Shown: positions 1 through 43,680 of the stretch, in pieces
How positions within the stretch are numbered: the stretch's first letter is position 1
How the letters are laid out: each line of letters opens with the position of its first letter
Source: a virus
Reading direction: 5' to 3' (one strand)
DNA: 43,680 nt
Virus record (IMG/VR): IMGVR_UViG_3300017694_000006
Span: 1 to 43,680 of that record
The notes under the pieces: generated by a model
The model's database searches: none
What the model was told of the DNA's origin: nothing
The model's input: only the letters and a program-made list of their open reading frames with translations
Program-made: the position numbers and the translations under genes

Positions 1-123
1 GGAAACCGAGACCATGCGCGAGAAGCTGGAGATCAAGACCCAGGAGGCTGCGGCCATCCTGAAGCCGGGCGGGGAAATCCTCTACCTAGGCACTCCGCAG
101 TCCCAGTCCTCGATTTACCGAAA
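1..123. repeat. Contig end overlap, identical to 43558-43680. Indicates circular closure or a permuted assembly
   Basis: Direct comparison: ggaaaccgagaccatgcgcgag...cgatttaccgaaa is present at both ends of the window, 123 of 123 bases identical. Confidence 0.95.
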
Positions 124-1234
124 GCTGCCCGAGAAGGGCTATGAGGTCCGCGTCTGGCCTGCCCGTTATCCGCTTGCGGAGAAGCTGGGCAACTACAGCG
201 GCTCCCTCGCGCCCATGCTCATGGCAGACATCGAGCGCGATCCGTCCCTCATGAAACCCTTGGGTTCCACTGTGGGCGGCGCTCCGACTGACCCAGACCG
301 CTTCAACGACCTCGACCTGATCGAGCGCGAGACCGAGTACCGGGCTGCGGGCTTCCTGCTCCAGTACCAGCTCGACACCACGCTCTCGGATGCTGAGAAG
401 TACCCGCTCAAGTCCCGCGACCTGATCGTCACCGACTGCGACAAGAAGGTCGCTCCGGCGCGCTTGGTCTGGGGCTCCAGCCCCGAGCTGGCCATCAAGG
501 ACATCGAGAACGTCGGCTTCGACGGGGACCGGCTCTTCCGGCCCATGCACGTCTCCTCCGAGTTCCTCGGGTACACCGGCAGTGCCATGCACATCGACCC
601 TTCGGGCCGTGGGCGCGACCGTACTACCTACGTGGTCACCAAGTTCCTCTGCGGGTACGTCTTCGTGACCCGGTGGGGTGGCTTCCAGGATGGCTATGGT
701 CCTCAGACCCTCGCTGCCCTAGCGCAGATAGCTGCCGACGAGGAGGTCTCCATCATCGTCCCCGAGGACAACTTCGGTGACGGCATGTTCGGCAAGCTCC
801 TCGAACCCTACGTCAATCGCCTCCGGCCCTGCCGGGTCGAGGGGACGCGGGTCAAGGGGCAGAAGGAGCTGCGCATCATCGGGGCCCTAGAGCCCACCAT
901 GCGCTCCCACAGGCTCGTCATGGACACCAACGTCCTGAGGGCTGACCTCAAGCAACCCGTGGTCCACTCCGGGCTATTCCAGCTCACCCACATGACCTCG
1001 GCTCGCGGAGCCCTGAAGCATGACGACATGGTCGACGTGCTGGCCATGGGTGTGCAGCACTGGACCGAGTACCTCAACGCCGACGCTAAGAAGGCAGAGG
1101 ACGACCGGAAGAGGAAGGCGGACCTTGAGTGGGAACGGAAGTTCTTCGAAGGGACCGTGGGTCACAGCTTCATGCGCAAGCCTACAGGTGTCCTGGCCAA
1201 GAGAGGCCGTGGGAGGCCTGTGGGGAGGCGATGA
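1..1234 (+). CDS. terL: Terminase large subunit (T7 gp19-like), 3' portion. The reading frame continues from 43121-43557 across the circular junction
   Basis: ORF track 14..1234 is in frame with the open frame at the window end. Sequence LYLGTPQSQSSIYRKL...RVWPARYP resembles T7 gp19 IYLGTPQ...ARYP. Stop TGA at 1232-1234. Confidence 0.93.
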   Translation, partial: ETETMREKLEIKTQEAAAILKPGGEILYLGTPQSQSSIYRKLPEKGYEVRVWPARYPLAEKLGNYSGSLAPMLMADIERDPSLMKPLGSTVGGAPTDPDRFNDLDLIERETEYRAAGFLLQYQLDTTLSDAEKYPLKSRDLIVTDCDKKVAPARLVWGSSPELAIKDIENVGFDGDRLFRPMHVSSEFLGYTGSAMHIDPSGRGRDRTTYVVTKFLCGYVFVTRWGGFQDGYGPQTLAALAQIAADEEVSIIVPEDNFGDGMFGKLLEPYVNRLRPCRVEGTRVKGQKELRIIGALEPTMRSHRLVMDTNVLRADLKQPVVHSGLFQLTHMTSARGALKHDDMVDVLAMGVQHWTEYLNADAKKAEDDRKRKADLEWERKFFEGTVGHSFMRKPTGVLAKRGRGRPVGRR

Positions 1235-1239
1235 GGATG

Positions 1240-1261
1240 GGGAGGGTAGTTGTACCCTCCC
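1240..1261 (+). other. Stem-loop directly after terL (9-bp stem GGGAGGGTA/TACCCTCCC, loop GTTG), no U-run
   Basis: Read from sequence: gggagggta gttg taccctccc. Confidence 0.4.
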
Positions 1262-1268
1262 TGTTCCT

Positions 1269-1291
1269 GAAGGACTCCTGCGGGGCTCCTA
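1269..1291 (+). repeat. Direct repeat copy 1, GAAGGACTCCTGCGGGGCTCCTA (partner at 2099-2120)
   Basis: Near-identical to GAAGGACTCTGAGGGGCTCCTA at 2099-2120 (one indel, one substitution). Part of an array of CTCCTNNGG-type short repeats. Confidence 0.7.
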
Positions 1292-1369
1292 GAGACTCCT
1301 GAGGCGCATTGAAGGACGGGGGAGGGGATGATACCCTTCCTCCTCCTTCCACTGCCCTAAGAGGCTCCT

Positions 1370-1600
1370 GTGCCCATCGGCATGACCACCAGCAGCTCTG
1401 CCGTCACTCTTCCCCTCGACGTGATCTTAGAGGTCATCAAGGGGACCAGAGGACACCCAGTGTCTGAGGAGACAATGGCCCTGCTGCTGGTGGATGTGGG
1501 CTATGCCGTATGCAACCTGCCGGTGGAACCTGAGGTAGCTAAAGCGATCCTGAGGGAGGCCTTTGGGGCTGAGGGTCCTTTAGGTATACCTAAGGTATAA
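1370..1600 (+). CDS. Hypothetical protein in the position of T7 gene 19.5 (last gene before the genome junction)
   Basis: 76-aa ORF, GTG start 6 nt after AAGAGG. An ATG alternative lies at 1382. No recognisable motif. Confidence 0.45.
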   Translation: MPIGMTTSSSAVTLPLDVILEVIKGTRGHPVSEETMALLLVDVGYAVCNLPVEPEVAKAILREAFGAEGPLGIPKV

Positions 1601-1619
1601 CCCACCCCCGAGGGTGGGT
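1600..1619 (+). other. Perfect hairpin ACCCACCC-CCGA-GGGTGGGT abutting the stop codon of the last gene
   Basis: 8-bp perfect stem and 4-nt loop read from sequence. Followed by gataatt rather than a U-run. Confidence 0.6.
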
Positions 1620-1626
1620 GATAATT
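1604..1626 (-). promoter_or_regulatory. Family-B (T3-like) promoter motif in reverse orientation: AATTATCACCCACCCTCGGGGGT on the - strand
   Basis: Reverse complement of 1604-1626 matches the copy at 10868 at 20 of 23 positions and the copy at 23750 at 19 of 23. Confidence 0.45.
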
Positions 1627-1793
1627 CGACCTCGTCACTTTCACTGCAAAAATCCGAGGCGGGATAGCGCACAGCGCAAGCTGGCGGTTCCCCCCGTGGG
1701 GGTGCCCTGCCGGGGATCGTCCCTAGCCCGCCGCGCTTTCCGCCTGTCCTGAGGGCATCCCTCGGTCACCCTTGGCGCGATCCGGCGCACCCT

Positions 1794-1816
1794 TTGACGG
1801 CACCCCCTGCTAATCG
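1794..1816 (+). promoter_or_regulatory. Weak candidate host promoter TTGACG-N9-GCTAATCG (alphaproteobacterial sigma-70 style)
   Basis: Pattern resembles the Caulobacter-type TTGACGS-N10-14-GCTANAWC consensus, but the spacing is short. Confidence 0.2.
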
Positions 1817-1925
1817 GCTAGTTCGATGGCACCCTGTGGGCCATAGCGTGCCATCTGAGGGCAGGCGAGGGGTCCTGAGGGCCTGCCCGTGGGCTGCCGT
1901 TGGTTCGGGCGTGTCTCTGCTATGC

Positions 1926-1937
1926 CCTGCGTTTTTC
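1926..1937 (+). repeat. 12-nt direct repeat CCTGCGTTTTTC, copy 1
   Basis: Identical 12-mer at 2136-2147. Both are preceded by ATG(C/G)(C/G). Confidence 0.6.
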
Positions 1938-2098
1938 GATCCAGCTCTTCAGCGTCCCTCGGGTACCCTGCGGCTATCCTTCGAGGTCCTGGGGTGATCC
2001 TGCAGTGCCTACTATCCTGAGGATGCCCTACAGTGCCCTGCGGACCACCTTAGGACTCGCTGCGGCGCTCCTGAGTGGGTCAGTGCGGGCGGGGCTTG

Positions 2099-2120
2099 GA
2101 AGGACTCTGAGGGGCTCCTA
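2099..2120 (+). repeat. Direct repeat copy 2, GAAGGACTCTGAGGGGCTCCTA (partner at 1269-1291)
   Basis: See 1269-1291. Confidence 0.7.
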
Positions 2121-2135
2121 CGGGCTCCTAATGGG

Positions 2136-2147
2136 CCTGCGTTTTTC
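2136..2147 (+). repeat. 12-nt direct repeat CCTGCGTTTTTC, copy 2
   Basis: Identical to 1926-1937. Confidence 0.6.
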
Positions 2148-2185
2148 CTGCCTAGACAGAGGGTAGGACAGGGCCCTGTGAAAAC

Positions 2186-2209
2186 AATAGTTCGAGATAT
2201 CGAACTATT
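2186..2209. repeat. Inverted repeat AATAGTTCGA-GATA-TCGAACTATT (10-bp perfect arms)
   Basis: Read from sequence. The right arm overlaps the first family-A motif by 2 nt and sits just upstream of the TTGACA at 2213. Confidence 0.75.
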
Positions 2210-2225
2210 CCATTGACACGACGAT
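2208..2225 (+). promoter_or_regulatory. Family-A intergenic motif copy TTCCATTGACACGACGAT
   Basis: Matches consensus TTCCATTAACCCGACRAT. Confidence 0.5.
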
Positions 2226-2241
2226 TGACCACGCCTAGATA
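2213..2241 (+). promoter_or_regulatory. Candidate host sigma-70 early promoter TTGACA-17 nt-TAGATA
   Basis: TTGACA at 2213-2218, a 17-nt spacer and TAGATA at 2236-2241, about 210 nt upstream of the first early gene. The position is analogous to T7 A promoters. Confidence 0.5.
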
Positions 2242-2427
2242 GGGATCACCGGACGGCGAGACACTCTCACCAACCGGGGCCCAGACGGGGAGCGCGCAGG
2301 ACCGCTTCGATCCATCTGGGAGCCATCACCTAGACTGCCCTGAGGGGTTGAAGCGGTGGCGAGGAGATAGCGGGGAAACCCGCCGGTTCCTAGAGGGGCG
2401 CTGAGGCGCTCCTGCAGCAACCGATAG

Positions 2428-2445
2428 TTCCATTAACACGATGAT
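2428..2445 (+). promoter_or_regulatory. Family-A motif copy TTCCATTAACACGATGAT
   Basis: Preceded by GATAG, as in the copies at 6805, 6887 and 8944. Lies 7 nt upstream of the 2452 start codon. Confidence 0.55.
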
Positions 2446-2451
2446 TGGAGA

Positions 2452-2829
2452 ATGACGATGCGCCTTTGGACCTTCGCAACCGCTTCGTTCCTGGTGACCG
2501 CCGATACGGTGCCCGACAGTGACGTTGACACGTCCTATGACGAAACTGGAGAGACCGACGAGAAGCTCGCCAGCGGCGAGTGGGAAGCCTTCGGCACCGT
2601 CGTCAAGGTGGAGACGCATGACGGCGTGGAACTGGGCACTGCAAGCCTATGGGGCTCGATTTACGCCGACCCTCGCGAGTTCCGGGATCACCTGGGCATT
2701 GCTGAGAAGGGCCGGGCCGACGGGTGCAACTACGGAAGCTACTTCTCGGACTTGGTTCGGGAGGCAGTGGGCGAGGCGCGCACGACGCTGGCCACGCTAC
2801 AAGGCCTAAAGGTCCGCACCGCGACCTAA
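2452..2829 (+). CDS. Acidic early protein, first gene after the junction region (position of T7 gene 0.3)
   Basis: 125-aa ORF. GGAG lies at 2447-2450, so ATG 2458 may be the true start. D/E-rich stretch DSDVDTSYDETGETDEKLASGEWE. Confidence 0.6.
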   Translation: MTMRLWTFATASFLVTADTVPDSDVDTSYDETGETDEKLASGEWEAFGTVVKVETHDGVELGTASLWGSIYADPREFRDHLGIAEKGRADGCNYGSYFSDLVREAVGEARTTLATLQGLKVRTAT

Positions 2830-2832
2830 CCC

Positions 2833-2850
2833 TTCCATTAACCCGACAAT
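2833..2850 (+). promoter_or_regulatory. Family-A motif copy TTCCATTAACCCGACAAT
   Basis: Begins 6 nt after the TAA stop codon of the 2452-2829 gene. Confidence 0.6.
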
Positions 2851-2937
2851 CCCAACAGGTCCCATGTCGAGGGGCGGACACGCGCCGCCCTTCATATCGG
2901 CCCTGCCGAAACCCTCAGACAACCTGGAGTGACCCAC

Positions 2938-3264
2938 ATGCGCCAAGCCATCACCACGAAGTACCTGGGGCCGACGAACTCGCGTGGATCGCGGGTTAAG
3001 GCCACCGCCGCAGCAGGCTCCATTACCGATAGCTGGAACCATGCCCAGAACGTCGATGAGAACCACGCCCGTGTTGCCCAGCTGCTCGCTGCTAAGTTTG
3101 GCTGGTCGGGCGTCTGGGTCGCCGGGGGCCTGCCGAATGATCGCGGCAACGTCTTCGTCAGCCTGGAAGGCGAAACCTACGGCGCAGAGCGGCAATCCGC
3201 CGGGCGGGATGACCGCTTGGGGATTGAGGGGCGCGACTGGTTCGGCCTCCGGCCCCGCGCCTAA
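2938..3264 (+). CDS. Hypothetical early protein (MRQAITTKYLGPTNSRGSRVKA...)
   Basis: ORF track 2929..3264. The ATG at 2938 lies 8 nt after GGAG, and third-position GC is high. Confidence 0.6.
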   Translation: MRQAITTKYLGPTNSRGSRVKATAAAGSITDSWNHAQNVDENHARVAQLLAAKFGWSGVWVAGGLPNDRGNVFVSLEGETYGAERQSAGRDDRLGIEGRDWFGLRPRA

Positions 3265-3267
3265 TCC

Positions 3268-3285
3268 TTCCATTAACCCGACAAC
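3268..3285 (+). promoter_or_regulatory. Family-A motif copy TTCCATTAACCCGACAAC
   Basis: Begins 6 nt after the stop codon TAA at 3262-3264. Followed by GGAG and ATG 3300. Confidence 0.6.
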
Positions 3286-3299
3286 CTGGAGTTCACCTC

Positions 3300-3920
3300 A
3301 TGACCCTTTCAGTTTCCCGGAAGACCGACCGCACGAAGATGGCCGCTGCCATCGCCGCCCTGTGCGCTGACCTGGGCGCAACCTGTGAAGTCCGCGACAT
3401 GGCAACCTACCGCTACCCGGACGGCTCCGGCGGCAGCTGCCCTCGCGAGATATGGTGCATCATCAAGCACGGTGCGGTCGAGGTCACGGTCGACCTGGAC
3501 GGCGACAGCGGCCAGCAGCGGGAAGGGACCTGGGTCCTGGCCTGGGTTACTGACATCAACTCGCACGCCCGTTTTGCGTCGCGGTTCGGCAGCGCCGCCG
3601 GGGGCACCGCCAACGGGCGCAAATGCACTGCAGTGACCTACGGGGGGTTTGAGGGCCTGACGGCAGGCCTGCGACGTGCCCTGGAGTGCGTCAACGCGGG
3701 GGAGGCCCTGGGCGAGCCTGCAGCTTACATGGTGCGAGAAGGGGAGGGGTCACACGGTCAAGCGCCGCATGGCTGCTACACGGCTTCGGGCGTGCGGATC
3801 AGTGGCGGCGGGATCGTCCCTCTCTCAGCTGCCGAGTACGCCGCCAAACGTGGCGGGATGCGCCTCATCTCCCGCGAGGAACTCGACGCGATCCTGCAGA
3901 GCCCCGCGCTCGCTGCCTAA
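3300..3920 (+). CDS. Hypothetical early protein
   Basis: 206-aa ORF with an upstream GGAG. No recognisable motif. Confidence 0.6.
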   Translation: MTLSVSRKTDRTKMAAAIAALCADLGATCEVRDMATYRYPDGSGGSCPREIWCIIKHGAVEVTVDLDGDSGQQREGTWVLAWVTDINSHARFASRFGSAAGGTANGRKCTAVTYGGFEGLTAGLRRALECVNAGEALGEPAAYMVREGEGSHGQAPHGCYTASGVRISGGGIVPLSAAEYAAKRGGMRLISREELDAILQSPALAA

Positions 3921-3923
3921 CAC

Positions 3924-3941
3924 TTCCATTAACCCGACAGT
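3924..3941 (+). promoter_or_regulatory. Family-A motif copy TTCCATTAACCCGACAGT
   Basis: Begins 6 nt after the stop codon TAA at 3918-3920. Confidence 0.6.
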
Positions 3942-4028
3942 CTCCAGCGGGGCCCTCGTCGCCCCGCCGGTTTCCCGAGTGCCTCCCGAGCGGGGCCCTC
4001 CGGTAACTGCAAGAGGAGTGAAGTACCA

Positions 4029-4214
4029 ATGATCGCACGAACCGTGCGCCGGGCATCCCTCGGCGTCTTCTTCAGCCTAGGGGTCGCCCAGCTGGCCATC
4101 GAAGGCCTCTCCTGGACCCTCGGCTTCCCCATCACATCCTGCGCGTCCTGCGGGATCATCATGCTGGCCGCGCTCATAGGGGCGCTGGTCGGCGCTGCGT
4201 TCGAGGAGGTCTAG
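4029..4214 (+). CDS. Small membrane protein with two predicted TM segments
   Basis: 61 aa. Hydrophobic stretches LGVFFSLGVAQLAI and IIMLAALIGALVGAAF. AGAGGAG lies upstream. Confidence 0.55.
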   Translation: MIARTVRRASLGVFFSLGVAQLAIEGLSWTLGFPITSCASCGIIMLAALIGALVGAAFEEV

Positions 4215-4216
4215 CC

Positions 4217-4570
4217 ATGCCAGAGCGCAAACGAAACCAGCTCATCGCCCGCACCGCAGCGACCATCACGATTGCCCTTAGGCGCGTGTGGGCACCCCAA
4301 GGCGGCAACGCCAGCGGCGTGGAGGTCGGCGTCATCCTGACGGAGGTATTCTACACCGCCAACCCCTGGGTCACTGCCCAGTACGTCACCGACCGACTTG
4401 CGGGGGTCTATTCCACGGACACCGTCCGCCGCCGACTCGAAGAGATGGTCGACGCTCAAACCGTCGAGCTGATCGAGACAGGAGGGCGCAAGCTCTACAG
4501 GGCAGGGCCGGGGGCTGCTGGTGCCACTGTCGAAGCGTTCCTAGACGGGTGCGCAACGCTCAATGTCTGA
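4217..4570 (+). CDS. Putative winged-helix DNA-binding protein
   Basis: 117 aa. The C-terminal part TVRRRLEEMVDAQTVELIETGGRKLYR looks like a wHTH recognition helix plus wing. Confidence 0.45.
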   Translation: MPERKRNQLIARTAATITIALRRVWAPQGGNASGVEVGVILTEVFYTANPWVTAQYVTDRLAGVYSTDTVRRRLEEMVDAQTVELIETGGRKLYRAGPGAAGATVEAFLDGCATLNV

Positions 4571-4690
4571 ACGCCGCAAATCCACGCCAACGCCGCAATT
4601 TGCGTCCGAACTATTCCAAACTCGGAACCATCGGTCTAACGGGAAGACCGCTAGAAGATGAGAACGGAATAAGAACATTTCACTTGCAAT

Positions 4691-4706
4691 GTAGGACTTT
4701 TCCTAC
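4691..4706. promoter_or_regulatory. Palindrome GTAGGA-CTTT-TCCTAC in an AT-richer intergenic region. Candidate operator
   Basis: Perfect 6-bp arms read from sequence, upstream of the MarR-like gene. Confidence 0.35.
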
Positions 4707-4846
4707 GATCCATCTGTCTGCTACGCCGGAGGGCACGGGGGGTTTAAAAGCGGGGGACGCTTCGAACCGGAGCCTACGGCAACAATCCGCCGTCTCAATC
4801 ACGGGGCGGTTGAGCTGAGGTCATGACCGTATGCGAGACAATGCCG

Positions 4847-4870
4847 TTGACAAACAATTCGGGCTAACCG
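4847..4870 (+). promoter_or_regulatory. Candidate host promoter TTGACA-N10-GCTAACCG upstream of the MarR-like gene and integrase
   Basis: TTGACA at 4847-4852 and GCTAACCG at 4863-4870. Resembles alphaproteobacterial TTGACGS-N10-14-GCTANAWC. Lies 58 nt upstream of ATG 4928. Confidence 0.4.
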
Positions 4871-4927
4871 AAGTGCGGGGGAGCAGAGTGAACGCCGACA
4901 ATCACATCTCGCGAAAGGAATTACGCA

Positions 4928-5374
4928 ATGCTAGGGACAGCCACCGCTATCGAGAGGCCCCGAGTGACAACGACCACGAAGCAGCAGCGATCCGATCCGC
5001 TAACGCGGCACGTGCGCGACTTCGAAAACTACTCGGCGGCGATGATCGTCCTGGCCGAGAGTGCGCCGGACCGCATGAGCCTGTCGCAGGGGATTTTCTT
5101 TATCCTGACCGCCACTGCCGATCTTGCGGGCAAGGACCCCACGTTCAGCGACATTAAGGAGGCTGTGGGCGACACCGTCAATCGCTCGCTCCACACAACC
5201 TACCGTGTCCTTCTGGAACCCTCGCGGAACTACCCGGATGGCCTTGGTTGGCTCCGCCAGGAACCGAACCCGATGGACGCGCGGCAGAAGTTCCTCCGAC
5301 TGACGCCGAAGGGCAAGTCGGTTCTCAAGGGCATGCTGCACGCCATGAACATCAAGATGGAAGGAGCAAACTGA
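4928..5374 (+). CDS. MarR-family-like winged-helix transcriptional regulator
   Basis: 148 aa. The segment TVNRSLHTTYRVLLE...GLGWLRQEPNPMDARQKFLRLTPKGKSVL has the MarR pattern (recognition helix, wing, D.R...LT.KG). The stop codon overlaps the integrase start. Confidence 0.55.
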   Translation: MLGTATAIERPRVTTTTKQQRSDPLTRHVRDFENYSAAMIVLAESAPDRMSLSQGIFFILTATADLAGKDPTFSDIKEAVGDTVNRSLHTTYRVLLEPSRNYPDGLGWLRQEPNPMDARQKFLRLTPKGKSVLKGMLHAMNIKMEGAN

Positions 5375-6666
5375 TGGCCAAGCTGGGCCAGAAGTCCAAC
5401 GGCATCTACTACCTCGACGTGCAGGTGCCGGATGACGAAGGCGGGCTCAAGCGCAGCCGTGTGAGCTGCAATACCCGCGAGAAGAGAGATGCGGAAGCGC
5501 AGCGCCGCGACTGGATCGCTGGAGTTCACCCACAGCATCCTAGCCGGGGCGGAGTTATCGCGCCTAAGGGTCGCGCAGCTGTCCGCGATACATCCATTAG
5601 CCCGCCGAAGCGGCAAACGGAACTGACGCTTGTCCAGTGGCTCGACATGTGCCTGTCGACGATATGGTCGAACGTGCAGATAAAGGCACACGCCTCCGCA
5701 TGCTCAAATGTGAAGGTCCTGACCGAAATTATCGACAATGACCTACTCCTGGCGGACGTGTCATCAGCACACCTGCAGACCATCGCGGCGGACCTCCGAA
5801 AGCGCGAGTACGCTGAAGGCACCGTCAAGCGGAAGCTGCAGGCCATCGTGGCCGCGCTGAACCACGCGAAGTTGACCGAGGACGCCCAGGGTAAGGCGCT
5901 CTACGTCGGAACGGCGCGCAAGCCCAAGACGGCCAAGGTTCGCCCCCGCGAGCGCGTGTTGAGCCGGGACGAAGAGGTGGACGTGTTCAAGTGCCTAGAC
6001 GCGCGCATAGAGGCCGAGCCGGGCCGTCCGTGGCTGAAGTTTAAGATGCTGACTCTGGTCATGCTCGACACCGGGTTCCGCCTGGGCGAGGCGCTCGCCT
6101 GCGGTGCCCGCAACGTCCGCCGCAAGCGCTGGGTCGATCCCCGTTCGGGCGAGGCGCAGGAGGCCGTGTACCTTCACATCGAGGGCATCCACACGAAGAG
6201 CGGGCTACCGCGCGAGGTGCCCCTCACGGATCGCGTCATCGAGTTACTGCCGCTGCTCAACGCGGGGTCCGCAGGGGGCCGATGGTTCCCCTGGAAGCCC
6301 AAGCAGAGCGGCGCGTGGTATCTGTGGAACAATATCCGCGAGGACCTGTCCAAGATGGGTCACGACGTCTCGGACGTGGTGCAGCACACCTTCCGCCACA
6401 CCTGCGCCACGCGGCTGTGCGAAGGCGGCATGGACTTGGTCTCGCTCCGAGACTGGCTCGGCCACTCGGATATTGCCATCACCGCGCAGAACTACCTGCA
6501 CCTGATGTCCACCCATCTCCACGTCGGTGCAGCGATCCTGAACACCAGCAACGGCTCCAATAATGTGGTGCCACTTCGCAGCTCAAATGGTGCCCAGGGC
6601 GCCATCCCGAATAGTCGTGTTAACGGAAGCGAACGTGACGAGGCTGGTTTGGCACGATCCGCCTAA
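5374..6666 (+). CDS. int: Tyrosine recombinase / phage integrase
   Basis: ATG at 5374 after GGAAGGAG (ATGA overlap with the upstream gene). Catalytic-type motifs FRLGEAL, HTFRHTCATRL and LGHSDIAITAQNYLHL are present. Confidence 0.9.
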   Translation: MAKLGQKSNGIYYLDVQVPDDEGGLKRSRVSCNTREKRDAEAQRRDWIAGVHPQHPSRGGVIAPKGRAAVRDTSISPPKRQTELTLVQWLDMCLSTIWSNVQIKAHASACSNVKVLTEIIDNDLLLADVSSAHLQTIAADLRKREYAEGTVKRKLQAIVAALNHAKLTEDAQGKALYVGTARKPKTAKVRPRERVLSRDEEVDVFKCLDARIEAEPGRPWLKFKMLTLVMLDTGFRLGEALACGARNVRRKRWVDPRSGEAQEAVYLHIEGIHTKSGLPREVPLTDRVIELLPLLNAGSAGGRWFPWKPKQSGAWYLWNNIREDLSKMGHDVSDVVQHTFRHTCATRLCEGGMDLVSLRDWLGHSDIAITAQNYLHLMSTHLHVGAAILNTSNGSNNVVPLRSSNGAQGAIPNSRVNGSERDEAGLARSA

Positions 6667-6745
6667 GCCGCAGTAAACCGCCATTGCGCTAGTTCCGGGC
6701 GCACCAAAGTTTCCGCAGTTACCTGCGGCTTTGAAGTTAAGATGA

Positions 6746-6779
6746 GGGGTGCGCCAAATGGCGCACCCCTTTTTCTTTG
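6746..6779 (+). terminator. Rho-independent terminator downstream of int
   Basis: GGGGTGCGCC-AAAT-GGCGCACCCC (10-bp perfect stem) followed by TTTTTCTTT. Confidence 0.8.
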
Positions 6780-6804
6780 TGCCGGGCACGTTGTGGCACG
6801 GTAG

Positions 6805-6822
6805 TTCCATTAACATGACAAT
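6805..6822 (+). promoter_or_regulatory. Family-A motif copy TTCCATTAACATGACAAT, bracketed by the inverted repeat GGCACG/CGTGCC
   Basis: GGCACG at 6795-6800 and CGTGCC at 6823-6828. A hairpin GGCGACT-TATG-AGTCGCC follows at 6832-6849. Confidence 0.55.
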
Positions 6823-6886
6823 CGTGCCAATGGCGACTTATGAGTCGCCCTTGGGATACCTGCGTCCAACGCACGCGGACCGATAG

Positions 6887-6904
6887 TTCCGTTAGCCCGA
6901 CTAA
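6887..6904 (+). promoter_or_regulatory. Family-A motif copy TTCCGTTAGCCCGACTAA
   Basis: Preceded by CGATAG. Lies 29 nt (start to start) upstream of a family-B motif. Confidence 0.5.
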
Positions 6905-6915
6905 GGGCGCTCATC

Positions 6916-6938
6916 AATTACCACCCACCCTCGGCTCG
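6916..6938 (+). promoter_or_regulatory. Family-B (T3-like) promoter motif AATTACCACCCACCCTCGGCTCG, upstream of the RNAP gene
   Basis: Matches consensus AATTAWCMCCCACCMTCGGNGGA. Confidence 0.55.
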
Positions 6939-7006
6939 GGAAGCTCCTGCAGCCGCTCCTCGGTGCGCGTTCGGCGCACCCAATCCCTGACCAGGAAGGA
7001 ATACCT

Positions 7007-9499
7007 ATGACCGATTTCCGCGCCCAGCTTCGCCGCCAGATCGACCTTGAAGACGAGCAGCGCGCCCTGGGGCAATCCCGCTATCACTCGCGGGCTCTCC
7101 CGTGGAAAGCCGAAGCGGGCAGCATGGATGAGGAGGCCAACCTCCCGCCCGGCACGCACCTCCTCAAGGCAACCGTCAAGCCCGTGGCCGAGGCAATCGA
7201 GGCGTTCCTGTCCGAAGCGTGCGAGCGCAAGGCAGGGCGGCTGCACCGCGCCGTCGACTTCCTCCTCCTCGCTGAGCCCCAGGAGGTTGCCTATCTTGCG
7301 ACTCGGGTGATGGTGAACCTGTGCATGTCGCAGTCCCTGCTGCAGACGGTGGCCATCAAGGTCACCGACGCGCTCATCGAGAACCTGGAGTTCAAGTCGT
7401 TCCGCGAGATGAACCGGAAGGGGTACAAGGGGTTCCTGAAGGCCCAGGAGGCGAGGGGGTCTTACTCGCGCCAGCGCAAGAGCGCCGTCAAGAAGCTCTT
7501 CCAGCACGAAGGCTGCGCCATCAGCGTATCGCCGGAGGAGCGCGTCTCCATCGGCACGAAGTGCATCGAGCTGGTGATCGAGGCCACAGGCTTCTTCGCG
7601 TTAGAGAAGGTGCGCCGCTCCAACGGCTTCGCCTACAGCCTCCGCCCAACCGAGACGCTGCAGGGCTGGTTCGACAACCAGCACGCCCGCTGCTCGCTGC
7701 TCGACCCCATCAACATGCCCATGGTCGTTCGCCCGCGCCGCTGGCGCTCGCCCACCTACGGCGGCTACCTGACCCCCCGCCACGGGAACCGCTTCATCAA
7801 GCAGCGGAACCAAGCGTACCACCAGGAAGCCCGCCACATGGACCTGTCGAAGGTCTATGACAGCGTGAACCACATCCAGGACACGCCCTGGTCGATCAAC
7901 GTCCGCGTGCTGGAGGTGATGGAGCAGGTATGGGCTGACGGGACCTCCCTCGGGGGCCTTCCGCAACGCGAGGATGACCCTATCCCGGCCAAGCCGGAGG
8001 ACATCGACACCAATGAGGCAGCGAAGAACGCCTGGAAGCGGGCGGCTGCCGAGACCTACGAGACCAACGCGGAGCGTCAGTCGGGCCGCATCGCCATGCA
8101 CTCGGGTCTGTGGGTTGCCCGCAGGTTCGCTGACGAGGGCTCCATCTACTACCCCCACGAACTCGACTTCCGTGGGCGGGTCTATCCCATCCCGGTGTTC
8201 GGCCCGTCACCACAGGGCTGCGACTGGCAGAAGTCGCTCCTGCACTTCTCCGAAGGTGTCCCTCTGGGCCTTGAGGGTTTCCGCTGGCTCTGCATCCACG
8301 TCGCCAACCTCTTCGGGGTCGACAAGGTTTCCTTCCGGGAGCGGGAGAAGTGGGTCACGGACAACCTCCCGGCGCTCATGGACAGCGCACAGAACCCCCT
8401 CGACGGTGACAGGTTCTGGACGACCGCAGACAGCCCCTACAGCGCCCTTGCGGCTCTGTTCGAGCTGAACGACTGCGTTCTGATGGATGACCCCACGGCC
8501 TACGTGTCGCGGGTGCCTGTGGCGCTCGACGGGTCCTGCTCGGGCATCCAGCACTTCTCCGCGATGCTGAGGGATGCCGAGGGTGGCGCTGCGGTCAACC
8601 TGCTGCCCTCGGAGTTCCCGCAGGACATCTACATGCGCGCCGCAGGCAAGGCCCAGGTCATTGCCGACGCCACGCCCTTCATCACCTACACGGTGAAGGA
8701 AGGCGGGGAAGAGCATGATGTGACGATCCCGAACCCGTGGATGAACGGGATGGTCAAGCGGGGGATCGCCAAGCGTCCAACCATGACCTTCTGCTACAGC
8801 GCAACCCGCTTCGGCATGGGCGGCATGATCGTGTCGACCTTGAAGGAGATGGACCGAGACAGGGCAGGGAAGGGCGAGGGCCCGTACCTGGGCGGTGCGG
8901 ACAACTATCACTGCGCCATGTGGCTTTCCCACGTCATGTTTAGTTCCATTAGCGAGACTGTTCCGGCTGCCGCCAAGGCGATGGAGTGGCTCCGCGAGGC
9001 GGCGAAGGTGGCGGCGGAGGGCGGCTTGCCGCTGTGGTGGACGACCCCGATGGGCCTTCCAATCCTCCAGGAGTACAAGGCGCAGAAGGGCGAGCGCGTT
9101 GAGGTTCACTGGATGGGCCAGCGGGTTCGCATGATGGTCCAGAAGGAGACTGAGGACCTCGATGGGCGCGCCCAGGCAAATGGCGTCGCTCCGAACTTCG
9201 TCCACTCACTGGACGCAGCGCACCTCCAGGCCGTGGCGCTCCGCTGCCGGGAAGAGGGGATTGGCCACCTCGCCATGATCCACGACAGCTTCGGCACCCA
9301 CGCGGCCAACACCGCGCGGCTGTCAGCGATCCTCAGGGACACCTTCGTGGAGCAATACGAGGGCGATGTCCTGGGGGACTTCCATGCGGAGCTGAAGGAG
9401 CAGCTGGGAGAGGAGTTGGCAGCCAAGCTGCCGGAGCCTCCGAAGTCCGGGAACCTAGACCTGAACCTCATCCGAGGTGCGTCCTACACGTTCGCCTAA
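7007..9499 (+). CDS. Single-subunit DNA-directed RNA polymerase (T7 gene 1-like)
   Basis: 830 aa. Contains VALDGSCSGIQHFSAM, GVAPNFVHSLDAAHL, AMIHDSFGTH and a C-terminal YTFA (T7 ends FAFA). RBS GGAAGGA. Confidence 0.97.
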   Translation: MTDFRAQLRRQIDLEDEQRALGQSRYHSRALPWKAEAGSMDEEANLPPGTHLLKATVKPVAEAIEAFLSEACERKAGRLHRAVDFLLLAEPQEVAYLATRVMVNLCMSQSLLQTVAIKVTDALIENLEFKSFREMNRKGYKGFLKAQEARGSYSRQRKSAVKKLFQHEGCAISVSPEERVSIGTKCIELVIEATGFFALEKVRRSNGFAYSLRPTETLQGWFDNQHARCSLLDPINMPMVVRPRRWRSPTYGGYLTPRHGNRFIKQRNQAYHQEARHMDLSKVYDSVNHIQDTPWSINVRVLEVMEQVWADGTSLGGLPQREDDPIPAKPEDIDTNEAAKNAWKRAAAETYETNAERQSGRIAMHSGLWVARRFADEGSIYYPHELDFRGRVYPIPVFGPSPQGCDWQKSLLHFSEGVPLGLEGFRWLCIHVANLFGVDKVSFREREKWVTDNLPALMDSAQNPLDGDRFWTTADSPYSALAALFELNDCVLMDDPTAYVSRVPVALDGSCSGIQHFSAMLRDAEGGAAVNLLPSEFPQDIYMRAAGKAQVIADATPFITYTVKEGGEEHDVTIPNPWMNGMVKRGIAKRPTMTFCYSATRFGMGGMIVSTLKEMDRDRAGKGEGPYLGGADNYHCAMWLSHVMFSSISETVPAAAKAMEWLREAAKVAAEGGLPLWWTTPMGLPILQEYKAQKGERVEVHWMGQRVRMMVQKETEDLDGRAQANGVAPNFVHSLDAAHLQAVALRCREEGIGHLAMIHDSFGTHAANTARLSAILRDTFVEQYEGDVLGDFHAELKEQLGEELAAKLPEPPKSGNLDLNLIRGASYTFA
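8944..8961 (+). promoter_or_regulatory. Family-A-like motif TTCCATTAGCGAGACTGT inside the RNAP coding sequence
   Basis: TAGTTCCATTAGC shares the extended upstream TAG seen at 2428, 6805 and 6887. It is weaker in the 3' half and may be fortuitous. Confidence 0.25.
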
Positions 9500-9502
9500 T
9501 AC

Positions 9503-9520
9503 TTCCATTAGCCCGACGAT
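9503..9520 (+). promoter_or_regulatory. Family-A motif copy TTCCATTAGCCCGACGAT
   Basis: Begins 6 nt after the RNAP stop codon TAA. Lies 31 nt (start to start) upstream of a family-B motif. Confidence 0.55.
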
Positions 9521-9533
9521 CTCGGGTGCGGGC

Positions 9534-9556
9534 AATTATCCCCCACCATCGGCGGA
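9534..9556 (+). promoter_or_regulatory. Family-B (T3-like) promoter motif AATTATCCCCCACCATCGGCGGA
   Basis: Shares about 40 nt with the copy at 10819, including the downstream GGCGGATGAAACCGC. Confidence 0.65.
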
Positions 9557-9591
9557 TGAAACCGCACCCCATCAAAGAGGACCATGAGACC

Positions 9592-9702
9592 ATGAAGAAT
9601 ATCACCTTGAATCGTGAGGCCCGCGAGCGCCTCGCAAGGCAGCTGGCGGAGACCCACGGGCGTCCTGTCCAGGTCGTCGACGTCGCTGACGGAGGACGCT
9701 GA
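9592..9702 (+). CDS. Small hypothetical protein (36 aa)
   Basis: ATG 8 nt after AGAGGA. The stop TGA overlaps the ATG of the next gene (TGATG). Below the ORF-track length cutoff. Confidence 0.35.
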   Translation: MKNITLNREARERLARQLAETHGRPVQVVDVADGGR

Positions 9703-10166
9703 TGCGCCTCCTCTACCTCGACCTAGACGGCGTCATGGCCGACTTCGACGCCCACTTCCCGGCCCTGTTCGGCGTGGATCATCGCGAGATGCTCGACGAG
9801 GAAATGTGGTCAAGGATCAACGCACACCCGAGCTACTTCCGCGACATGCCGATGTGCCCCGGCGCGCTGGAGTTCTTCCATGAGGTGCGACACCTCAATC
9901 CCATCATCCTCACCGCGTGCCCCAAGTCGGATTATGCCCACGTCGCGCGGCAGAAGCGGGCCTGGGTTCGCCAGCACCTGTCACCTGAGCTGACCGTTCT
10001 GCCCGTCATGGGAGGGCGCAACAAGCCGCTCTTCATGCACGCCATGGGCGACGTCTTGGTCGACGATCTGGACCGCAACTGCGGGGCCTGGGCGGACGCA
10101 GGCGGCTACCCTGTGCGGCACCGGAACTTCGAACTCACCCGTGCGCGGCTGAAGGAGCTGTTCTGA
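9702..10166 (+). CDS. HAD-superfamily 5'(3')-deoxyribonucleotidase-like protein
   Basis: N-terminal LYLDLDGVMADF (DxDGV nucleophile motif) and, later, VLVDD. Confidence 0.7.
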   Translation: MRLLYLDLDGVMADFDAHFPALFGVDHREMLDEEMWSRINAHPSYFRDMPMCPGALEFFHEVRHLNPIILTACPKSDYAHVARQKRAWVRQHLSPELTVLPVMGGRNKPLFMHAMGDVLVDDLDRNCGAWADAGGYPVRHRNFELTRARLKELF

Positions 10167-43120: not shown

Positions 43121-43680
43121 GTGTGGACCCGGTTGCTGCTCTTGCCGCAGCCGACCCGCGTACAGTTAGACATCGCCCGCTTCCTAGAGACGGGAGGACG
43201 CCGCCGGTTCATCCAGGCGTTCCGAGGGGTCGGCAAGACCTTCCTCACTGCAGCCTACGTGGTCTGGCGTCTCTGGAAGAACCCTAACCTCAAGATCATG
43301 ATCGTGTCTGCGAATGAAGCGTTCGCGACCGAGATTGCTCTCTTCATCAAGCAAATCATCGAGCATGAGGCTGGCGACGACCTATGGTCCGAGCTGCGCT
43401 CCAGGCCCGGCCAGCGGACCTCCGCACTAATCTTCGACGTCGGACCTGCGAAGGCCGACAAGAGCCCCTCGGTGAAAGCCGTGGGTATCACGGGACAGCT
43501 CACGGGCTCCCGCGCTGACATCGTCCTATTCGACGACACCGAGGTTCCGAAGAACTCGGAAACCGAGACCATGCGCGAGAAGCTGGAGATCAAGACCCAG
43601 GAGGCTGCGGCCATCCTGAAGCCGGGCGGGGAAATCCTCTACCTAGGCACTCCGCAGTCCCAGTCCTCGATTTACCGAAA
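43121..43680 (+). CDS. terL: Terminase large subunit, 5' portion (runs off the window end and continues at base 124 of the window). Start uncertain: GTG 43121 or CTG 43070
   Basis: Walker A FIQAFRGVGKTF and Walker B ADIVLFDDTE. QLDIARFL...FRGVGKT parallels T7 gp19 QIDMAKVL...FRGIGKS. The frame is open from 43013. Confidence 0.9.
   Translation, partial: MWTRLLLLPQPTRVQLDIARFLETGGRRRFIQAFRGVGKTFLTAAYVVWRLWKNPNLKIMIVSANEAFATEIALFIKQIIEHEAGDDLWSELRSRPGQRTSALIFDVGPAKADKSPSVKAVGITGQLTGSRADIVLFDDTEVPKNSETETMREKLEIKTQEAAAILKPGGEILYLGTPQSQSSIYR
43558..43680. repeat. Second copy of the contig end overlap (identical to 1-123)
   Basis: Same 123-nt string as the window start. It lies inside the terL reading frame. 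Confidence 0.95.

Follow-up and report, generated by a model that had tools for sequence, protein, structure and literature searches.

Introduction

Can a phage of the T7 type carry a working lysogeny system, and by what arrangement of genes and sites would such a system hold back the RNA polymerase whose expression commits the phage to lytic growth? This question is raised by a short region of the IMG/VR virus record IMGVR_UViG_3300017694_000006, a stretch of DNA of 43,680 nucleotides (nt) that was analysed at its full length and is referred to here as the window. Directly upstream of the gene for a T7-type single-subunit RNA polymerase, the window encodes a MarR-like winged-helix regulator and a tyrosine integrase. 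T7-like phages are often assumed to be strictly lytic, both in the choice of phages for therapy and in the interpretation of viromes, and each lineage with an intact cassette of this kind weakens that assumption. A first-pass annotation had recognized a lysogeny-type module at 4217-6666, and every feature that it listed there was recovered in the present analysis. Here, we conclude that the module is very probably a standard lysogeny cassette of temperate T7-like phages, carried by a new lineage. The organization of this cassette has already been published for other temperate T7-like phages, to which the lineage adds a member; the present analysis contributes prophage junctions mapped in relatives, a tRNA-Lys core predicted for the phage attachment site (attP), and conserved repeats on both attP arms.

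Organization of the Cassette

The window combines a T7-type polymerase with a T7-like gene order, and in it the MarR-like, integrase, and polymerase genes follow one another directly in that order, all on one strand (Table 1). The co-directional placement of the integrase ahead of the polymerase, as first annotated, is therefore upheld. The same order of MarR-like, integrase, and polymerase genes is found in the phages S2B and CRP-361 and in more than ten metagenomic relatives, and relatives without exception have the MarR-like gene immediately before the integrase gene. In the window, the stop codon of the MarR-like gene (TGA, 5372-5374) and the start codon of the integrase gene (ATG, 5374-5376) share one A in the sequence TGATG, so the two genes are tightly coupled, in keeping with the translational coupling proposed for them earlier.

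Table 1. Features of the cassette and its surroundings in the window (positions 1-43,680), and related prophages mapped at both ends.
Feature	Position	Strand	Details
Winged-helix DNA-binding protein, 117 amino acids	4217-4570	+	Profile, Pfam of family members, AlphaFold2 (AF2)/Foldseek
Non-coding control region, 357 base pairs (bp)	4571-4927	+	Upstream of MarR-like gene
Promoter candidate TTGACA-N10-GCTAACCG	4847-4870	+	TTGACA 4847-4852, GCTAACCG 4863-4870
Small palindrome TTCGG-N5-CCGAA	4858-4872		Within control region
MarR-like winged-helix regulator, 148 amino acids	4928-5374	+	phrog_9665, family profile, AF2/Foldseek
Tyrosine integrase, 430 amino acids	5374-6666	+	ATG at 5374; PF00589, phrog_1
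Left (P) arm, inverted TTCCRTTARC copy	6611-6628	-	Inside integrase gene 3' end; inverted-repeat pairs I1, I2, I7
Left (P) arm, TTGGCACGAT	6649-6658		Inside integrase gene 3' end
Core-flanking inverted repeat AAGCCGCAG... / ...CTGCGGCTT	6665-6681 and 6715-6731
Predicted attP core TTCCGGGCGCACCA	6693-6706	+	3' end of tRNA-Lys(UUU)
Intrinsic terminator	6744-6779	+	Right of core; 12-pair stem, 9 G-C, at 6744-6771, then TTTTCTTTG
Right (P') arm, GGCAC repeat cluster	6779-6830		Candidate MarR-like operators and/or integrase arm sites
Tight palindrome GTGCC-G-GGCAC	6779-6789		Then GGCACGTT
TGGCACGGT-N18-ATCGTGCCA	6794-6829		Brackets TTCCATTAAC element
Second TTCCGTTAGC element	6887-6903	+
T3-like phage promoter ATTACCACCCACCCTCGG	6917-6934	+	About 70 nt before polymerase ATG
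RNA polymerase, T7-type single-subunit	7007-9499	+	PF00940, 1e-109
TTCCRTTARC family	2428, 2833, 3268, 3924, 6805, 6887, 8944, 9503, 17644	+
Prophage, Novosphingobium resinovorum CP128492	~2,805,800-2,850,430		tRNA-Cys(GCA); 12-bp core CTCGGGCCTCCA
Prophage, Alteriqipengyuania flavescens CP129107			tRNA-Gly(CCC); core TCACCCGCTCCAGA; layout as in N. resinovorum
Prophage, JGI contig Ga0310127_000334 (77-kb contig)			tRNA-Gly(CCC); 19-bp core

The Integrase

The integrase scores 53.4 bits against PF00589 (cut-off 27.1; 3.6e-14) and matches phrog_1, annotated as "integrase" (7.6e-42), and its catalytic region aligns with XerD and with the HP1 integrase. All six catalytic residues, R236, K275, H338, R341, H364, and Y374, are in place and do not vary among the 16 members of a family alignment. 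The catalytic domain is intact, in agreement with the first-pass annotation. A total of 162 homologues was found, the best with 54% identity, and some of these are located in bacterial chromosomes. Residues 1-200 have no match in Pfam. Conservation among relatives with differing tRNA cores is highest over residues 1-65, and this portion is a putative arm-type DNA-binding domain.

XerD and XerC are among the sequence matches in the PDB, and the recombinase could accordingly be thought to resolve replication dimers or concatemers in the manner of Xer proteins rather than to integrate the phage. We regard this as extremely improbable, since Xer proteins lack the long N-terminal domain, the best family match is the phrog_1 integrase family, and homologues of the enzyme lie exactly at prophage-host junctions with duplicated tRNA 3' ends, as described below.

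Integrated Relatives

The polymerase has more than 400 homologues with identities of up to 87%, many of them on contigs of 42-46 kb, and homologues of the integrase or polymerase occur in chromosomes of Novosphingobium, Alteriqipengyuania, Sphingomonas, Chakrabartia, Caulobacter, and Brevundimonas. Three prophages, integrated at tRNA 3' ends, could be mapped at both ends, two of them in complete sphingomonad genomes and one in a metagenome contig (Table 1). In N. resinovorum, the polymerase gene comes first after tRNA-Cys(GCA), the MarR-like and integrase genes come last, 43 kb away, and the core CTCGGGCCTCCA is repeated after the integrase gene. All three prophages have the polymerase gene at the left junction (attL) and the MarR-like and integrase genes at the right junction (attR); in the prophage of contig Ga0310127_000334, the polymerase and the MarR-like protein are 77% and 68% identical to those of the window. 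The closest polymerase relative (87%) adjoins host genes, polymerase homologues of 63-87% identity adjoin host or tRNA genes at attL, and further attR junctions were found at two of the loci that are referred to here by L numbers, L033 and L014. On the host side of attR in L014 (12049-15000) lie genes for DndB-like, D12 methyltransferase, BrxR-like, and AlpA-like proteins, so this prophage adjoins an apparent mobile or defence island.

The mapped junctions place attP between the integrase and polymerase genes, and integration thus carries these two genes to opposite ends of the prophage, of which the polymerase gene becomes the first. The first-pass annotation had missed the attachment site between the integrase gene and the terminator, and with it the separation of the polymerase gene from the module on integration.

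The Predicted Attachment Site and the Terminator

An 11-mer with a terminal CCA begins 28-29 nt past the integrase stop codon in each of the three mapped prophages, as well as in L032 and L033, and it has the shape of a tRNA 3' end, namely acceptor strand, discriminator base, and CCA. The corresponding 11-mer of the window, CGGGCGCACCA, begins 29 nt past the stop codon. When positions 6696-6714 were compared with 185,579 genomes, five matches were obtained, which is about the number expected by chance, and none was a prophage; one of the five is the exact 3' end of a tRNA-Lys(UUU) gene in an alphaproteobacterial metagenome-assembled genome (L027). A tRNA-Lys(UUU) gene in the metagenomic locus L066 ends in CCTTCCGGGCGCACCA, a 14-nt match to 6693-6706. 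The offset rule and the tRNA-Lys(UUU) matches together place the core at 6693-6706, in the spacer between the integrase and polymerase genes. Judged from these matches, the attP core of the window is most likely TTCCGGGCGCACCA, shared with a bacterial attachment site (attB) at the 3' end of a tRNA-Lys(UUU) gene. In an integrated copy, attL would then be expected to run from a tRNA-Lys(UUU) gene, with TTCCGGGCGCACCA as its end, into AAGTTTCCGCAGTTACC, and attR to run from GCCATTGCGCTAGTTCCGGGCGCACCA into host sequence beyond the tRNA. From this site and from the mapped relatives, we infer that the window phage itself integrates. A longer query of 23 nt had no matches in metagenomes, and a gapped pattern of the core and the GGCAC palindrome matched at least 125 metagenomic loci, with no polymerase, integrase, or MarR-like relative among the matches listed.

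The predicted core is flanked by an inverted repeat (pair I3; Table 1), and its two halves could pair into a hairpin across the core, though in transcripts of the free phage alone. Repeats of a similar kind flank the core in the reconstructed attP of the N. resinovorum prophage and in L032, and a hairpin spanning the core recalls the sib-type control of the integrase in phage lambda.

The terminator to the right of the core, which separates the module from the polymerase gene, is the best one within positions 1-10000; the first-pass annotation had already named it the strongest in the early half. It would end the transcript of the MarR-like and integrase genes in the free phage, and once the phage has integrated, it would follow directly on the host tRNA gene, ahead of the polymerase gene, a consequence that the first-pass annotation had likewise missed.

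The MarR-like Regulator

The 148-residue protein encoded ahead of the integrase is, on profile and model evidence, a divergent MarR-like winged-helix protein. It matches phrog_9665, annotated as "transcriptional regulator" (1e-5). The curated MarR models considered were PF01047, PF12802, and PF13463; HTH_27 is reached at E < 0.01 by 12 of the 35 family members, and MarR or MarR_2 by none. A profile built from 35 homologues matches MarR-family structures exclusively, the best being Tm0710 (E = 2.8e-4) over a wing of 33 residues. The AF2 model, with a mean confidence score (pLDDT) of 83.6, contains helices, a beta-hairpin wing, and one C-terminal helix; the last dimerisation helix of MarR proteins appears to be missing from it. 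Homologues are 52% identical in N. resinovorum, 44% in A. flavescens, 32% in S2B, and 28% in CRP-361, where the protein carries a MarR-family annotation.

Across relatives, the identity of the MarR-like protein to that of the window (44-79%) tracks the identity of the polymerase, with pairs of 68/77, 59/74, 52/65, and 44/63%, and the integrase stays at 38-50% (L013, L014, L017, L001, and L005). The first pattern fits a role of the MarR-like protein in the control of the polymerase, and the second suggests that the integrase and its tRNA target are exchanged between otherwise related phages. No CI/Cro-type protein was found by Pfam among the early open reading frames (ORFs), just as none had been visible on first inspection. 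The MarR-like protein is thus the best candidate for a repressor of the polymerase gene, acting through the GGCACGAT repeats described in the following section.

Repeats and Promoters around the Attachment Site

Copies of the GGCACGAT repeat lie to the left and to the right of the core and enclose the stretch that precedes the polymerase gene. Four GGCACG/CGTGCC hexamers fall within 200 bp around the core, the densest such cluster in the window (Poisson estimate about 0.005 genome-wide), and the exact 9-mer TGGCACGAT is present in the window only at 6650 and, inverted, at 6821-6829. Relatives carry the GGCAC motif both at the extreme 3' end of the integrase gene and, clustered three to five times, right of the core; the left-arm elements recur at the 3' end of the integrase gene in L013, L033, L014, L019, L023, and L026. 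The right arm also contains a 34-bp element, GGCACGAT-N18-ATCGYGCC, with a spacing that is fixed in ten relatives. The 1-bp spacer of the tight palindrome at 6779-6789 could weaken the binding of a protein there, and at the same site the closest relative, L009, reads GTGCCGCGTGGCAC. In L019, a gene for a Bro-N protein (3047-3751; PF02498, 2.4e-20) is inserted between the GGCAC cluster and the polymerase gene; proteins with Bro-N domains are common among prophage antirepressors.

As judged by their position and conservation, the GGCACGAT repeats are candidate operators, candidate arm sites of the integrase, or both. If they were solely arm sites bound by the N-terminal domain of the integrase, then the MarR-like protein would act elsewhere, for example at 4571-4927, or would itself be the directionality factor of recombination. 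The placement of the repeats on both sides of the core, at about -40 and at +75 to +125 with tandem copies about 10-11 bp apart, is in keeping with this, and a conserved N-terminus of 65 residues combined with varying cores is the pattern expected of fixed arm sites. The MarR-like gene also overlaps the start of the integrase gene, the place of xis in lambda, and lambda Xis is a winged-helix protein. However, sites of the kind bound by a dimeric regulator are suggested by the GTGCC-N4-GGCAC palindrome and by the GGCACGAT-N18-ATCGYGCC bracket, which encloses a promoter-like element at a fixed spacing, the MarR-like protein follows the polymerase and not the integrase in its identity, and with 148 residues and a MarR-type wing it is larger than typical excision factors. 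The model in the literature, moreover, puts MarR sites on the flanks of the promoter of the polymerase gene. We therefore hold the assignment to arm sites in place of operators to be somewhat unlikely. A comparison of co-variation did not discriminate between operator and arm site, the N-terminus of the integrase and the recognition helix of the MarR-like protein being equally conserved, and the two functions are not mutually exclusive.

A second motif, A.A.TTCCRTTARC..GA, has ten copies in the window against 0.01 expected. Each early gene has a copy ahead of it, the polymerase gene has two, and an inverted one (6615-6628, minus strand) falls within the 3' end of the integrase gene, where it mirrors the copy on the right arm. 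The motif is limited to the closer relatives, being present in L013, L014, L017, and L033 and absent from more distant ones. It fits none of three promoter patterns: no -35/-10 pair matches it as a sigma-70 promoter, it differs from the T3-like promoter at the specificity positions, and it does not conform to sigma-54 promoters either. A sigma-54 promoter at TGGCACGGTAGTTCCA was considered and rejected, since neither the window nor any relative has the conserved -12 GC there, the position being occupied by CC, CG, or another dinucleotide. The T3-like promoter family itself has seven copies in the window against none expected, and a copy precedes the polymerase gene in every relative. Six of the seven point right and one points left (1608-1625, minus strand); the latter lies in a 1.2-kb, mostly non-coding stretch between the terminase and the early genes.

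The mirrored arrangement also permits a bolder proposal, that the attachment site and the lysis-lysogeny switch are one and the same DNA segment in this lineage. The composite of GGCACGAT and TTCCRTTARC forms an inverted pair on the two attP arms: its right copy faces the polymerase gene, and its left copy faces back into the integrase gene, where it may be an antisense promoter. One protein, the MarR-like protein by itself or joined by the integrase, would bind both copies and so control the polymerase, the integrase, and the geometry of recombination, and integration would complete the switch by uncoupling the polymerase gene from upstream transcription. We consider this proposal distinctly improbable.

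Proposed Mechanism of Lysogeny

In the interpretation that we prefer, that of a standard cassette, the MarR-like and integrase genes would make up a single operon with translational coupling, which the host polymerase would read from 4571-4927 up to the terminator at 6744-6779. The integrase would recombine the attP core (about 6693-6706) with the matching host tRNA-Lys(UUU) gene. Integration would sever the polymerase gene from all upstream transcription, since attP is situated between it and the integrase gene. In the resulting prophage, the polymerase gene would come first, behind the host tRNA and the terminator, and the early, MarR-like, and integrase genes would lie at the far end; the prophage would remain silent for as long as the phage polymerase is not made. 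Since the polymerase gene has a phage-type promoter of its own (6917), any leak would be self-amplifying, and a repressor would be needed at this point. Bound to the GGCACGAT repeats that surround the stretch ahead of the polymerase gene, the MarR-like protein could keep such a leak from occurring.

Several observations weigh against this interpretation. A sigma-70 scan of positions 1-10000 found no promoters, which leaves the operon without a canonical host promoter. The window is a free, circularly assembled form of the phage, and scans of genomes and metagenomes revealed neither this exact phage nor its attP type in integrated form among the matches listed; the occurrence of integrated copies in bacterial genomes, to which the first-pass annotation had tied its claim, holds for relatives but not for the phage or core type itself. 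The nearest homologue of the integrase is just 54% identical, and no excision factor is recognizable in the window. As for the regulator, the sole Pfam match of the 148-residue protein, to HTH_27, is sub-threshold (18.0 bits against a cut-off of 22.2), and in a Foldseek search with its model, all of the top 50 matches were MarR-family proteins, but weak ones (E of 0.02-0.16, template modelling scores of 0.3-0.45). The spacer of the tight palindrome measures 1 bp in the window, against 4 bp in nine relatives and 5 bp in another. Both attP arms carry GGCAC repeats, and the N-terminus of the integrase is conserved like the recognition helix of the MarR-like protein, so that the repeats may be arm sites and not operators. 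Lastly, Pseudomonas phage LUZ100 carries the same cassette, yet stable lysogens of it were not obtained (PMC10134795).

The missing lysogen with the core of the window, the shortened spacer of an otherwise conserved palindrome, the lack of a sigma-70 consensus promoter, and the case of LUZ100 could together be taken to mean that the cassette is a relic and that the phage is effectively lytic or at most pseudolysogenic. A decayed cassette is difficult to reconcile with three full-length ORFs, intact catalytic residues, both arm elements kept, a predicted attP core that is the exact 3' end of a tRNA at the offset typical of the family, and relatives that are repeatedly found integrated. We therefore judge a relic to be unlikely and retain the standard cassette as the preferred interpretation.

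The Control Region and the Upstream Winged-Helix Gene

The operon is preceded by a spacer of 357 bp (4571-4927), unusually long given the compact genome of the phage. It contains several blocks shared with L014, for example CGCAATTTGCG and GAACTATTCCAA. An RNA element in this spacer was considered and rejected, as the sequence folds no better than shuffled sequence (z = 0.53) and has no Rfam matches; likewise, GGTTCGAA near 4750 was rejected by eye as a tRNA fragment. The first-pass annotation had proposed a candidate host-type promoter at 4847-4870. Its position stands, with TTGAC kept at the equivalent position in L014 and L013, but it is weak. The TTGACA hexamer is perfect, but the second element starts just 10 nt further on, which implies a hexamer spacing of about 11 nt, and the two near-consensus hexamers with a spacer of 16-18 nt by which sigma-70 promoters were defined are not found there. 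The site is thus a weak candidate, although the conserved TTGAC makes a non-canonical host promoter at 4847-4870 possible.

Upstream of the control region lies the gene for a second winged-helix protein, as the first-pass annotation had supposed. The profile of its family matches ArsR/SmtB-type winged-helix repressors in the PDB (E = 0.013), a representative library contains 25 relatives, and these match DUF7342, Penicillinase_R, PaaX, and MarR_2. A single-sequence AF2 model has a pLDDT of about 80 across a helix-helix-helix-strand-strand core, and Foldseek relates it to ArsR and MarR folds (E = 4e-3). The modelled 117-residue protein is accordingly a winged-helix protein of the ArsR/MarR fold class; a Cro-like protein, an antirepressor, and an excision factor are possibilities for its role. 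It is kept in only part of the relatives, with 62% identity in L014 and 48% in L017. An ORF encoding 61 amino acids (4029-4214) precedes the gene with a gap of only 2 nt, so the two are probably co-transcribed.

Genome Context

The window is a whole T7-type genome with a G+C content of 63%, every gene on the plus strand, and the usual T7 order. Its other T7-type genes encode a gp2.5-like single-stranded DNA-binding protein, an endonuclease, a primase-helicase, a DNA polymerase, and portal, capsid, tail tube, and fibre proteins. Its ends are exact copies of 123 bp (1-123 and 43558-43680), both within the large terminase gene, and the window therefore represents a circularly closed, non-integrated genome of 43,557 bp; the true physical ends carry no mark in it. 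ARAGORN found no tRNA genes and an Rfam scan no matches in the whole window. A Megablast search of positions 4000-9500 against 50,697 phage records returned only 90-nt matches within the polymerase gene, so there is no near relative among phage isolates. The lineage is undescribed and most likely has sphingomonads as its hosts.

Comparison with Known Systems

The first-pass annotation held the regulatory logic of a temperate T7-like phage to be essentially undescribed. That view is outdated, given the work on pelagiphages (10.1101/410191), on LUZ100 (PMC10134795), and on the phages Pasto and S2B, and the known organization of this group is unchanged by the present finding. What the lineage offers is access: close relatives exist as free genomes and as junction-mapped prophages in cultivable sphingomonads (Novosphingobium and Alteriqipengyuania), and the short, conserved cis-elements that surround attP and the polymerase gene lend themselves to mutation. 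Together, these make the published proposal of silencing by MarR, in which one gene is blocked, directly testable.

The order of MarR-family gene, tyrosine integrase, and polymerase was described for the HTVC019P-type pelagiphages (Zhao et al. 2019; 10.1101/410191), in which attP always lies in the non-coding region between integrase and polymerase, attB lies in tRNA genes, and cores measure 11-46 bp. Pelagiphages differ from the window in their marine SAR11 hosts and low G+C content, and their cores are often taken from the middle or the 5' end of the tRNA, whereas that of the window is predicted at the extreme 3' end. At the thresholds used, tblastn found no similarity to pelagiphage proteins, and neither LUZ100 nor Pasto was among the tblastn matches.

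For LUZ100, transcriptomics revealed a MarR-like and integrase operon transcribed from a non-consensus host promoter, a strong terminator, T4, directly after the integrase gene, and a phage promoter, phi1, directly before the polymerase gene, and a model of repression by MarR was put forward for this region (Putzeys et al. 2023; PMC10134795). The window has the same layout of operon, terminator, and phage promoter, its terminator at 6744-6779 corresponding to T4; LUZ100 differs in its gammaproteobacterial host and in a tRNA-Leu gene upstream of the integrase gene. The order of MarR-like gene, integrase, attP, and polymerase is likewise published for LUZ100, Agrobacterium phage Pasto, and S2B. 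Pasto and S2B figure as functional temperate T7-like phages with reported lysogeny in the accounts of PMC9145550 and PMC10134795, and Boeckman et al. 2022 (Virology 568:86), as cited in PMC10134795, describe widespread T7-like prophages and propose MarR sites that flank the promoter upstream of the polymerase gene.

The nearest isolate is Caulobacter phage S2B (MN857473; Ely et al. 2022), with identities of 52% for the polymerase, 35% for the integrase, and 32% for the MarR-like protein. It shares the gene order (gp057c-gp056c-gp054c) and has GGCACAC repeats between its integrase and polymerase genes, but these are direct repeats instead of the 34-bp bracket, an extra small ORF lies between integrase and polymerase, and the TTCCATTAAC motif is absent. 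The GenBank record of roseophage CRP-361 likewise has the gene order of the window.

The cassette also recalls that of lambda in several respects: an integrase with an extra N-terminal domain, a predicted core flanked by repeats on both arms, a small winged-helix gene that overlaps the start of the integrase gene, and an integration event that would separate a downstream element from the integrase gene. Unlike lambda, the window has no CI/Cro pair, and maintenance of the prophage would be expected to depend on the control of one gene, that of the phage polymerase.

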